Of a stretch of DNA of 58,920 bases, positions 43,631-45,524 are shown one piece after another; position 1 is the first letter of the stretch; each line of letters begins with the position of its first letter. The notes below the pieces were generated by a model, which saw only the letters and a program-made list of their open reading frames with translations, ran no database searches and had not been told where the DNA came from. Source of the DNA: Acidobacteriota bacterium (GTDB lineage Bacteria > Acidobacteriota > Terriglobia > UBA7540); contig JARRJI010000009.1 of the NCBI GenBank assembly GCA_037379595.1, forward strand, positions 1 to 58,920, read 5' to 3'. A program made the translations under genes and the position numbers.

Positions 43631-44338
43631 GTGTTTGACTCCCCTCCTGGTTGGTCTTATGATCGGCGGATGGGCACCTATGTCTGGATGCGAATCCTCG
43701 AGTCCAGACCTTTTCGGTACGACTTCGGAATCCGGCTTCTCTCTCTTGGCCACATTGACGCGATTTACGCACGGGTGACGCAACTGGCCCGTGGGCCCAG
43801 GGTGCTGGACGTTGGTTGCGGCACCGGCAACGTCGCCTTGCGACTGGCGGCCCGGGGGCTGCATGTCACCGGTGTTGAACTCTCCCCCGAGATGCTTGAC
43901 GTGGCCCGCCGGAAAATGTCGCCGGGACTGGAGGCGCGCTGGGTGCAGACGGGAGCCGTGGAACTGACGGATCATTTCCAGCCGGTATCTTTTGACACGA
44001 TTGTCAGCGTTCTGCTGTTCAGCGAGCTGAGCCCCGCCGAGCAGGCGGAGACTCTTCGGCAATGCTACCTGCTCTTGCGCAGGGGAGGCCAGCTCATCAT
44101 CTGCGACGAGGTGCGTGCTCCGACCCTTGTCCGGCGCTCCCTGCACAACCTGGTCCGCCTGCCACTGGCGGCGATAACGTATGCCTTGACGCAGACGGGC
44201 ACGGGCGCGGTCCGAGGCCTGGAAGAGAAAGTCGCTGAAGCACACTTCACAATCATTCGACGGGAAGCCAATCGCCTGGGTGACTTTGTTCTGCTGGAGG
44301 CTGAGAAGCAGGAAGGGAGTGATGCTGAGGGTGCGTGA
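43631..44338 (+). CDS. class I SAM-dependent methyltransferase
   Basis: Motif I VLDVGCGTGNVALRLAARGLHVTGVELSPEMLDVARRK; post-I and II regions (FDTIVSVLLFSEL, LLRRGGQLII). GTG start at 43631 or ATG at 43670. Confidence 0.8.
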   Translation: MFDSPPGWSYDRRMGTYVWMRILESRPFRYDFGIRLLSLGHIDAIYARVTQLARGPRVLDVGCGTGNVALRLAARGLHVTGVELSPEMLDVARRKMSPGLEARWVQTGAVELTDHFQPVSFDTIVSVLLFSELSPAEQAETLRQCYLLLRRGGQLIICDEVRAPTLVRRSLHNLVRLPLAAITYALTQTGTGAVRGLEEKVAEAHFTIIRREANRLGDFVLLEAEKQEGSDAEGA

Positions 44339-45524
44339 TATTTTTCTCGACGTCCTTCAGGTCTGCCTGCGGGTTTTCCCCTGGCCAAGCGAACCCCGGC
44401 TGATCCGTGTGGGCAATCCCGGACGGGATGCTCCAGTACTGGTGACGTGCAACTATGACTACACCATACGGCGCGTTATGCGGGCCTTGCGCGGACAGAA
44501 CGTATACCTGCTGGTTGCGCCTACGCGGGGCATCAACGTCTGGTGTGCTGCGGCGGGCGGGCTTTTCACCGCCCATCAGGTGATTTCCATCCTTCGCACC
44601 AGCGGCATTGGGGGCCGGGTCGATCACCGCCGGGTGATCTTGCCCCAGTTGAGCGCCACGGGCGTGGAACGCAAGCTGGTTGAGGAGCGGACCGGCTGGC
44701 ACGTGGTTTTCGGGCCCGTTTATGCTTGTGACCTTCCTGCCTACCTGGCGGCCGAACGAAAGACCGATGAGATGCGGAAGGTCCGGTTTCCGCTTATCAG
44801 GCGTTTGGAGATGGCGGTTGCCTGGGCCTATCCCATCTCGGTGATTGGAGGGGTGGTTCTGGCGCTTGGCTGGCCGCATCTGGTCTTGATCTTTGTGGCG
44901 ATGGTATGGGCTGTGGCCTTGGCCTTGTTTGGTTTCTTTCCGTGGCTTTATGGACCCATGGGGTATGCCGGCCAAAGGAACCCGGGCTGGACGCGCTACC
45001 TCGTCCTATTTGACCCTGTCGTTCGACGGAATCTACTCGTGTGGCTGGCTCTCGTGGTGGCCCTTGGCGTTTATGGCACCGGGTGGGGCGGCTGGAATGG
45101 CTGGAGCCTGGTGGGCTGGTCGCTGGCAGCTCTCTTCGTGGTGCTGCTTATCAGCATGGACATGGCCGGGAGCACGCCGCTCCACAAGAGCGGGCTGCAC
45201 GAGGACCGCCTCCTCCATATCGAGTTAGACTCTGTGGCCTGCCGGGGCCGGGCGATGTGCTGGGAGGTTTGCCCGAAGAATTGTTACGTCATCGACACCC
45301 GGCTGCACAAAGCGAGCATTGTTGAGCCGGACGCTTGCGTCCAATGTGGAGCCTGTATCGTGCAGTGTCCGGAGGACGCCCTGGCTTTTGTCGCCCCCGG
45401 CGGAGAGCGCATCCCGCCTGAAACCATCCGCACTCATAAGCTCAACTTGCTCGGCCGGCGGGCACTCCCCGTATCTTCCAGAAACAGTGAACCGCGACCG
45501 GATCAGGACCACGTGAACAGATAG
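44322..45524 (+). CDS. fused HgcA-like corrinoid domain / 4-TM domain / HgcB-like ferredoxin domain protein
   Basis: VGNPGRDAPVLVTCNY...GINVWCAAAGGLF...ILPQLSATGV...VVFGPVYACDLPAYL...EMRKVRFPL matches the remembered HgcA corrinoid domain, including the cap-helix NVWCA motif. Four hydrophobic helices follow (about residues 176-296 of the track ORF). The C-terminus carries CRGRAMCWEVCP and CVQCGACIVQCP. ATG 44322 overlaps the methyltransferase stop by 17 nt. Confidence 0.75.
   Translation: MLRVRDIFLDVLQVCLRVFPWPSEPRLIRVGNPGRDAPVLVTCNYDYTIRRVMRALRGQNVYLLVAPTRGINVWCAAAGGLFTAHQVISILRTSGIGGRVDHRRVILPQLSATGVERKLVEERTGWHVVFGPVYACDLPAYLAAERKTDEMRKVRFPLIRRLEMAVAWAYPISVIGGVVLALGWPHLVLIFVAMVWAVALALFGFFPWLYGPMGYAGQRNPGWTRYLVLFDPVVRRNLLVWLALVVALGVYGTGWGGWNGWSLVGWSLAALFVVLLISMDMAGSTPLHKSGLHEDRLLHIELDSVACRGRAMCWEVCPKNCYVIDTRLHKASIVEPDACVQCGACIVQCPEDALAFVAPGGERIPPETIRTHKLNLLGRRALPVSSRNSEPRPDQDHVNR

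Follow-up and report, generated by a model that had tools for sequence, protein, structure and literature searches.

HgcA (NF040863) and HgcB (NF040864) are the corrinoid protein and the ferredoxin of mercury methylation in organisms such as Pseudodesulfovibrio mercurii ND132. Purified HgcAB takes the methyl group from S-adenosylmethionine (SAM) via a methyl-Co(III) species with a Cys thiolate ligand, and HgcB gives the electrons (PMC11588087). C73, C94, and C95 of HgcB are reported to be critical for mercury methylation (PMC11588087, PMC7305189), and all six cap-helix motifs seen in verified methylators contain GK (PMC10087281). Fused HgcAB proteins were first described by Podar et al. in 2015 (PMC4646819). 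They have been used as a paralogous outgroup since (PMC7438021, PMC8163782), and Lin et al. placed them as the sister clade of HgcA (10.1101/2022.11.21.517362). No methylmercury was found from the fused-gene carriers Pyrococcus furiosus and Methanococcoides methylutens (PMC4646819, PMC5893877). Here we describe an hgcAB-like fusion gene (44322-45524, forward strand) and its upstream partner, the methyltransferase gene cpaM, in a 58,920-nucleotide stretch of an Acidobacteriota contig (JARRJI010000009.1), hereafter called the window.

The gene is an intact open reading frame (ORF) of 400 codons with its stop at 45522-45524. The protein matched the NCBIfam model NF043039, "HgcAB-like fusion protein", with 423.9 bits (cutoff 285, E 6.5e-127), and the match was full length (aa 10-354 on profile positions 3-349 of 350). 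The HgcA model NF040863 gave 158.3 bits (E 2.5e-46), below its cutoff of 275, and covered aa 24-166 only; the HgcB model NF040864 gave 44.9 bits at aa 299-355, below its cutoff of 99. Since the E-values for the fusion family and for HgcA are this low, the matches to these families are not due to chance. As in the NF043039 family, the corrinoid, transmembrane (TM), and ferredoxin domains are all in a single chain. The nearest homologues are 74-76% identical, and some of them are named by NCBI "HgcAB-like fusion protein [Terriglobia bacterium]". The window protein is a typical member of this already curated family, published in 2015, and with about 75% identity to its nearest relatives its architecture is not a new kind of protein. 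Its exact sequence had no record in a look-up of public assemblies. In common with the family, to which the fused proteins of P. furiosus (Q8U2U9) and M. methylutens belong, it has the same architecture, the same NVWC-x3-GG motif, and a CpaM upstream. We found no difference at the family level, and the protein belongs to a subgroup with a three-Cys first Fe-S motif and a Cys-free tail.

A first-pass annotation, made from the letters alone, had already read this ORF as one polypeptide with corrinoid, TM, and ferredoxin parts; profile searches, hydropathy, and AlphaFold2 bear this out, and all the peptides that it quoted are found in the translation. It had also taken fused HgcAB-like genes to be rare, which is out of date, as a genome scan gave at least 586 confirmed relatives, some true HgcA among them, in species-representative genomes of many phyla.

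Domains of the fusion protein compared with HgcAB and corrinoid iron-sulfur protein

The corrinoid-binding domain, which is of the type found in HgcA and in CFeSP (corrinoid iron-sulfur protein), lies at aa 20-141 (44379-44744, forward strand) according to Pfam, PDB sequence matches, Foldseek, and an AlphaFold2 model. Pfam PF03599 (CdhD) matched aa 20-134 with 53.5 bits (cutoff 24.8) at profile positions 265-379 of 387, and this partial match indicates superfamily membership only. The closest solved structures by sequence were the CFeSP large subunits 2h9a and 4c1n (E ~4e-15, aa 20-141). Foldseek gave the HgcAB model 9a0b_A as its best match (E 1.8e-9 over 298 aligned columns); CFeSP chains came next, with a root-mean-square deviation of about 3 Å across about 130 residues. 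The first-pass annotation had called the N-terminus HgcA-like, a reading that it would have given up had profile searches placed the domain outside the CFeSP/HgcA family. Its call agrees with PF03599, the CFeSP structures, and 9a0b_A, and the searches with HgcA, HgcB, and CFeSP profiles put the domain inside the superfamily (PF03599, NF040863). Only the C-terminal domain of CFeSP is shared, however. The CFeSP large-subunit model NF003195 (AcsC/CdhE) gave 80.5 bits, below its cutoff of 306, on the last 125 profile residues only, and no full-length CFeSP match including the N-terminal [4Fe-4S] and TIM-barrel domains was found. The window protein is membrane-anchored and has a C-terminal ferredoxin, whereas CFeSP has a single N-terminal [4Fe-4S] cluster.

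The cap-helix motif is N72-V-W-C75-A-A-A-G-G80 (44535-44561, forward strand). Cys75 (TGT, 44544-44546) is the predicted lower axial ligand of cobalt. It aligned without an indel to Cys93 in five true HgcA sequences from the genome scan, four with NVWCAAGKG (L073, L078-L080) and one with NVWCAAGKK (L076), and the GKG of HgcA is AGG in the window protein. In the alignment with CFeSP, the motif falls on SVLTAWAAG and Cys75 on the cap-helix Thr, so the cap helix has a Cys here and a Thr in CFeSP. The motif N(V/I)WC(A/S)(A/G/S)GK of verified methylators (PMC10087281) is not present, and NVWCAAAGG stands in its place. This form is shared widely among the relatives. Of the 120 closest homologues, 118 have NVWC-[AGS]-[AS]-x-GG. 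When representatives were taken at 50% identity, NVWC-x3-GG predominated with a few near-variants, and the canonical NVWCAAGKG occurred only in the lowest-ranked, ferredoxin-less matches. G70-I-N-V-W-C75-A-A-x-G79-G80 hardly varies in a set of 57 diverse fused proteins taken from species-representative genomes (C75 and G79 in 57/57, G80 in 53/57). NVWC-x3-GG is a signature of the whole fused family and not a peculiarity of the window gene; in the form GINVWC-x3-GG it is an empirical signature derived in this analysis. The first-pass annotation was thus right that the ligand Cys is kept and that GKG is replaced by AGG, as the indel-free alignment with the five HgcA shows, and the same alignment contradicts the refuting condition that it had set, a Cys not homologous to that of HgcA. 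Its sequence for a "variant" cap helix was also right, but a motif common to 118 of 120 close homologues is not unusual.

The membrane domain (44793-45161, forward strand; aa ~158-280) has four TM helices, at ~163-183, 186-208, 236-254, and 261-281 by hydropathy and at 158-183, 185-204, 232-255, and 260-278 in the AlphaFold2 model. The model was run on an alignment of 48 sequences and has a mean predicted local distance difference test score (pLDDT) of 65. It is usable for the corrinoid (Rossmann) domain, where pLDDT is high, and for the four helices, with pLDDT below 50 for the cap helix, the ferredoxin domain, and the tail. In the loops between the helices, arginines are confined to 209-235, predicted to be cytoplasmic, and the two short loops on the opposite side contain no Lys or Arg. 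Because of this Arg-rich loop and the even number of helices, both soluble domains should be on the same, cytoplasmic side. The first-pass annotation had argued from four hydrophobic helices to the same sidedness, and hydropathy, the AlphaFold2 model, and the Arg distribution all support it; the absence of TM helices, which would have counted against it, is not what topology and structure prediction gave. TM1-TM4 align with TM1-TM4 of true HgcA. HgcA has five helices, but its fifth has no counterpart here, and the ferredoxin domain replaces the TM5 region; it is the even helix count that lets the fused ferredoxin face the cytoplasm. After TM4 there is a conserved cytoplasmic loop motif, D280-M-A-G283-S-T-P286 (45159-45179, forward strand), which aligns to M-N-F-T-G-T-T-P of true HgcA (MDMAGSTPL-HKSGLHE in the window protein and MNFTGTTPFTSPSGVEKE in HgcA). 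Conservation across the fused family is 90% or more at D280 and G283 and 89% at P286.

The ferredoxin domain (45216-45392, forward strand; aa 299-357) contains C307-x5-C313-x3-C317-P and C339-x2-C342-x2-C345-x3-C349-P. The first motif reads CxxRxxCxxxCP, with its second Cys replaced by Arg310, and so the canonical CxxCxxCxxxCP occurs once only (C339-C349) and not twice as in HgcB. The domain aligns with HgcB of one true hgcA locus (L078) and differs from it in Arg310 and in having no Cys after C349. A two-cluster ferredoxin had been proposed in the first-pass annotation; the domain and its two motifs stand, but the canonical Cys ligands number three and four. CxxXxxC...CP is the [3Fe-4S] pattern in 7Fe ferredoxins and in FrdB/SdhB. 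Because the first motif resembles these proteins, the first cluster is probably [3Fe-4S], giving [3Fe-4S]+[4Fe-4S]. Azotobacter 7Fe ferredoxin I in the PDB matches aa 306-396 (E ~2e-4). Like the 7Fe ferredoxins (A. vinelandii FdI, FdxA) and FrdB/SdhB, the domain combines CxxXxxC...CP with CxxCxxCxxxCP and has a C-terminal extension, and its CWEVCPKNCY resembles CVEVCPVDCF of FdI. Unlike them, it is part of a membrane protein and not a free ferredoxin, and it scored 31.1 bits with the FdxA model NF045490, below the cutoff of 135. We considered C321 as a compensating fourth ligand of the first cluster and rejected it as a family feature, as it is present in only 20 of 43 three-Cys members.

The C-terminal tail (45393-45521, forward strand; aa 358-400) is free of Cys and contains the conserved R370, K/R373, G378, and R380. 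No tail Cys was found in 112 of 114 close homologues. Since there is no Cys beyond C349, HgcB Cys73 and the C-terminal pair Cys94/95 have no counterparts. In the 43 members of the three-Cys subgroup, the tail always co-occurs with the three-Cys first motif, position 310 is taken by a residue that cannot act as a ligand (Ala, Val, Arg, or another), and the tail residues are almost fixed (R370 and G378 in 43/43, R380 in 42/43). Across the 57 fused members, from distant phyla, about 50 positions are at least 90% conserved, including GINVWCAAxGG and all seven Fe-S cysteines.

The methyltransferase partner CpaM and the diversity of the family

The gene directly upstream encodes a class-I SAM-dependent methyltransferase (43670-44338, forward strand). 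It matched NF043040, "corrinoid protein-associated methyltransferase CpaM", with 250.1 bits (cutoff 180) and Pfam Methyltransf_25 with 74.9 bits. The mechanical ORF begins at GTG 43631 and the NF043040 profile at aa 16 of that ORF; ATG 43670 is the likeliest start and gives 222 aa, the length at which the orthologue in a relative (L083) is called. The LDxGCGTG SAM motif is conserved, and an ArsM-like metalloid site was looked for in CpaM and rejected, as no Cys is conserved past GCGTG. cpaM ends with a TGA at 44336-44338 and overlaps the hgcAB-like gene by 17 nt, and the identical 17-nt overlap was found in three relatives (L081, L082, L083). For the hgcAB-like gene, ATG 44322 is favored over the in-frame GTG 44280 because homologues begin at the same Met, a Shine-Dalgarno-like GGAAGGGAG (44311-44319, forward strand) can be read directly in the cpaM 3' end just ahead of it, and the upstream TGA lies at 44336-44338. 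The overlap and the internal Shine-Dalgarno suggest that the two genes may be translationally coupled.

We compared 80 related loci from species-representative genomes, 74 of which have enough upstream sequence. In 69 of these 74 the next gene upstream, in the same orientation, is a CpaM homologue, and the linked loci span Acidobacteriota, Chloroflexota, Myxococcota, Actinomycetota, Asgard, Bathyarchaeia, and others. All five true hgcA loci, which have the canonical NVWCAAGK and lack a fused ferredoxin, are among those without CpaM. The GK-versus-GG split of the cap helix is clean and tracks the CpaM partnership. Natural fusions also exist: four single chains with CpaM at the N-terminus (P0156, P0158, P0165, P0185), each representing a cluster at 50% identity, pass both curated cutoffs. 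In the two closest relatives with long contigs, the cpaM/hgcAB-like pair alone is shared and the other neighbors differ. cpaM and the hgcAB-like gene form a self-contained two-gene module, in which CpaM is the constant partner of the family and the best clue to its function. The first-pass annotation had noted housekeeping neighbors, which are indeed present downstream, but it missed the overlapping cpaM upstream. A literature search found no mention of the partnership in searchable literature, and it appears to be known from NCBIfam curation only.

The 80 loci fall into several groups. True HgcA, with a GK motif and no CpaM, accounts for five. The three-Cys subgroup, with a Cys-free tail of 33-47 aa and features shared by the window protein, accounts for 45 and occurs in Acidobacteriota, Myxococcota, Acidimicrobiia, Gemmatimonadaceae, Steroidobacteraceae, Rickettsiales, Heimdallarchaeota, Bathyarchaeia, and Thermoplasmata, among others. 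The four-Cys subgroup (16/80) has two canonical four-Cys motifs and mostly a short C-terminus, and it occurs in Dehalococcoidia, Desulfobacteraceae, and Pirellulaceae, among others. The ferredoxin is missing from CpaM-linked ~540-aa proteins of Anaerolineae and other Chloroflexota. Eleven such HgcA-like proteins (L062, L066-L072, L074, L075, L077) mostly have NVWCAAGGG(Y/F), with CpaM upstream and no ferredoxin motif in the ORF, and they are a third architecture of the CpaM-linked clade. The three-Cys subtype looks enriched in largely aerobic lineages, which is suggestive.

Some relatives depart from these patterns. Proteins of about 470-500 aa (P0193, P0198, P0205, P0219, P0241, P0248, and similar ones) pass NF043039 with the cap helix N(I/V)WCSSL(A/S)(G/N/H)H. 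They have an N-terminal extension of ~145 aa, which was considered as a clue to function in ~475-aa relatives and set aside, as it contains only extra hydrophobic TM helices and no enzyme domain. Four four-Cys fused proteins (L054, L058, L059, L061) have long Cys-rich tails with 3-9 Cys, closer to the HgcB tail. CpaM is directly upstream at L054 and L058 and about 3.3 kb upstream at L061, with no hit at L059. If any fused proteins handle thiophilic metals, these four would be the best candidates.

Bootstrapped neighbor-joining on the corrinoid domains of 85 sequences (124 columns), with one CFeSP segment as the root, recovered true HgcA as monophyletic with 95% bootstrap. The window protein falls outside it, in a CpaM-linked clade of 74 members, the sister group of the HgcA clade. 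With a single outgroup and 124 columns, support is weak for where the root lies and for strict monophyly of the CpaM-linked sequences. A lone CpaM-linked sequence (L067) strays to the HgcA side. Kimura distances from the window protein are 0.20-0.75 for CpaM-linked proteins, 0.87-1.03 for HgcA, and 1.37 for CFeSP. The topology agrees with the two clades of Lin et al. (10.1101/2022.11.21.517362), and it gives the first-pass annotation the phylogenetic placement that it had proposed as a check, with the fused CpaM-linked sequences.

A putative methyl-transfer module and the alternatives

Relative to HgcA and HgcB, the window protein has a homologous corrinoid domain, Cys ligand, TM1-TM4, post-TM4 loop, and dicluster-type ferredoxin, and a link to SAM is likely common to both (PMC11588087). 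It differs in being one chain and not two, in having four TM helices and not five and AGG and not GKG, in lacking the second Cys of the first Fe-S motif and equivalents of Cys73 and of the C-terminal Cys pair, in belonging to a separate clade, and in having a SAM methyltransferase partner that is missing from true hgcA loci. We propose, with a probability of roughly 60%, that the two genes form a module in which cobalt is reduced by the ferredoxin and then methylated by CpaM with SAM as the donor, after which Cys-ligated methylcobalamin passes the methyl group to an acceptor other than mercury. By homology to HgcA, where Co-S ligation has been shown, the N-terminal domain would bind the corrinoid base-off with Cys75 as the lower axial ligand. 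The C-terminal ferredoxin, on the cytoplasmic side, would pass electrons to cobalt to give Co(I). CpaM would then methylate the reduced cobalt from SAM to give CH3-Co(III), a step that we infer because of the strict gene linkage, the natural fusions, and the use of SAM by true HgcAB. The methylcobalamin would hand its methyl group to a putative acceptor at the membrane surface. This acceptor is probably not Hg(II) handled in the manner of HgcB, because the Hg-handling cysteines are absent, the cap helix has GG, and the culture tests were negative.

The logic of loading by a methyltransferase and re-reduction by an Fe-S cluster is shared with CFeSP and its methyltransferase MeTr, along with the corrinoid fold with its cap helix. 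The partner here, however, is a Rossmann-fold SAM enzyme, and that of CFeSP a methyl-tetrahydrofolate TIM barrel. Profile annotation of the neighbors of the window cassette found no CODH/ACS genes. The proposed chemistry, in which an electron donor and SAM convert cob(II/I)alamin to methylcobalamin, is also like that of MetH reactivation and TsrM-type enzymes (PMC11588087). There is no sequence relationship to these, CpaM being a class-I Rossmann methyltransferase and not a MetH activation domain or a radical-SAM enzyme. If reduction were coupled to SAM methylation, as in the reactivation of methionine synthase, a less reducing donor could drive the cycle; speculatively, such a donor would suit a [3Fe-4S] cluster and aerobic hosts.

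The kinship with HgcA could also mean that the window protein is a functional fused mercury methylase, possibly under oxic or micro-oxic conditions. The two have the domain set, the cobalt-ligand Cys, TM1-4, and the post-TM4 loop motif in common, the HgcAB model is the best structural match, and a SAM enzyme is attached here to a relative of a protein pair whose donor is SAM (PMC11588087). The oxic variant of this explanation comes from the presence of the family in aerobic lineages, and Lin et al. point to an aerobic fused-gene carrier still to be tested (10.1101/2022.11.21.517362). Yet the protein is below the HgcA and HgcB cutoffs and outside the HgcA clade, its cap helix is without the GK found in all six motifs of verified methylators (PMC10087281), and Cys73 and Cys94/95 of HgcB, crucial as mutagenesis indicates (PMC11588087), have no equivalents. 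Just two fused carriers have been tested, and both were negative (PMC4646819, PMC5893877), although such in vivo negatives are not conclusive according to Podar et al. (PMC4646819). The literature (PMC4646819, PMC5893877, PMC10087281) agrees here with the first-pass annotation, which had stated that the few tested carriers do not methylate mercury. We consider a mercury methylase very unlikely. A decaying or non-functional paralogue without any activity of its own is more improbable still, to the point of being nearly negligible. The family has no assigned function and the tested carriers show no methylmercury phenotype (PMC4646819, PMC5893877), but the ORF is intact, about 50 positions are conserved at 90% or more across 57 members, and the conserved operon partner, the gene overlap, and the repeated independent fusions point to purifying selection.

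Another explanation turns the roles around, so that CpaM carries out the terminal methylation, with a small molecule or a lipid (a quinone or phospholipid, for instance) as its substrate, and the HgcAB-like protein is a membrane redox or corrinoid partner, for example in reductive chemistry, and not a methyl relay. The next-best profile matches of CpaM included MenG/UbiE (52.9 bits), a methyltransferase of daptides, which are ribosomally synthesized and post-translationally modified peptides (47.2 bits), and BchM (46.1 bits). The CpaM/HgcAB-like triple fusions also match the phospholipid N-methyltransferase PmtA, and the PDB matches included MitM and other O-methyltransferases. A corrinoid and two Fe-S clusters at the membrane are found in reductive dehalogenases as well, and true HgcAB does not need an accessory methyltransferase to use SAM (PMC11588087). 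However, the small-molecule methyltransferase matches are all far under their family cutoffs, and the corrinoid domain is of the methyl-transfer CFeSP/HgcA type and not of the dehalogenase fold. Moreover, the invariant Cys-on cap helix is a feature linked to methyl transfer in HgcA, and CpaM fused to the N-terminus of the corrinoid domain suits a direct hand-over better than two independent activities. We regard this division of labor as unlikely.

Several points weigh against the proposed module. Each mechanistic step is inferred, and neither the fused family nor CpaM has a biochemically characterized member. No separate methyltransferase is needed for true HgcAB to use SAM, and the target of CpaM may accordingly be the final substrate or product and not cobalt. 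The Cys pattern is compatible with [3Fe-4S]+[4Fe-4S], as sequence cannot fix the cluster type, and the low pLDDT of the cap helix and the Fe-S domain in the predicted model gives no geometric support for electron or methyl transfer. The methylmercury-negative carriers may belong to either the three-Cys or the four-Cys subgroup, and Podar et al. caution that the absence of methylmercury in vivo is not proof of enzymatic inability (PMC4646819). Furthermore, ORF clustering over 81 loci for a conserved third gene that might hint at the acceptor gave only a TetR-like regulator in about 23 of them. This TetR/AcrR-family regulator, immediately upstream of cpaM in one locus (L031:4603-5232), is absent from the window.

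The SAM-fed methyl-transfer module remains our preferred explanation. In a bolder form, the module would be a SAM-driven, Cys-ligated cobalamin methylator of an electrophilic acceptor that is not thiol-bound Hg, such as another metal, a metalloid, or a membrane-soluble compound, and its three-Cys subtype would be oxygen-tolerant. We hold this form as tentative and rather doubtful.

Genomic surroundings and significance

Upstream of the module, on the forward strand, are a tRNA-Lys(CTT) gene (42452-42527, Rfam) and, just before cpaM, a LuxR/GerE-type regulator (42819-43481) whose receiver domain scored 30.1 bits, with a Pfam cutoff of 30.2. This regulator is not conserved beside the cassette in close relatives. 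Farther upstream is a divergent pair of paralogous ~1200-aa genes with CarboxypepD_reg and outer-membrane beta-barrel domains (32602-36240, reverse strand; 37205-40762, forward strand). The gene type is typical of Acidobacteriota and the pair fits a genome of that phylum, in line with the first-pass view of an Acidobacteria-like genome. The housekeeping genes tig, clpP, clpX, and lon, and after them rho, lie in a row downstream (45992-53364, forward strand), and a promoter-like TTGACA-16-TATACT (45847-45874) precedes tig. A promoter and terminator scan of 42600-46100 gave counts not above the shuffled expectation. The Rfam gathering scan of the whole window for a cobalamin riboswitch or other RNA elements returned the tRNA-Lys(CTT) only. 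In the closest relative with a long contig (L081), weak phage-integrase-like genes and an SSB gene surround the pair (1-3865, 7878-8324), a hint that mobile DNA can carry the two-gene module.

The appropriate annotation for the window gene is HgcAB-like fusion protein, with CpaM as its partner, and environmental surveys should leave it out of their counts of mercury-methylation genes. This exclusion matters because hgcA screens can pick up such paralogues. If the bolder form of the module were true, organometal(loid) or unusual C-methylated products would be made outside anoxic niches by a widespread, unrecognized route, and an oxygen-tolerant three-Cys version would be at work in aerobic lineages from soil and sea (Acidobacteriota, Myxococcota, Gemmatimonadota, Acidimicrobiia). 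The extreme version, if true, would mean a cryptic source of methylmercury in oxic environments. Our literature search found no mention of the CpaM partnership or fusions, of the GK-versus-GG split tracking that partnership, of the ferredoxin replacing TM5, or of the three-Cys and four-Cys subtypes. The CpaM linkage, the cap-helix split, the loss of TM5, and the Fe-S subtypes are properties of the family and not of this gene, and they sharpen the question of function, which dates from 2015. Combined with the demonstration in 2024 that true HgcAB uses SAM, these family observations point to a concrete biochemical experiment.

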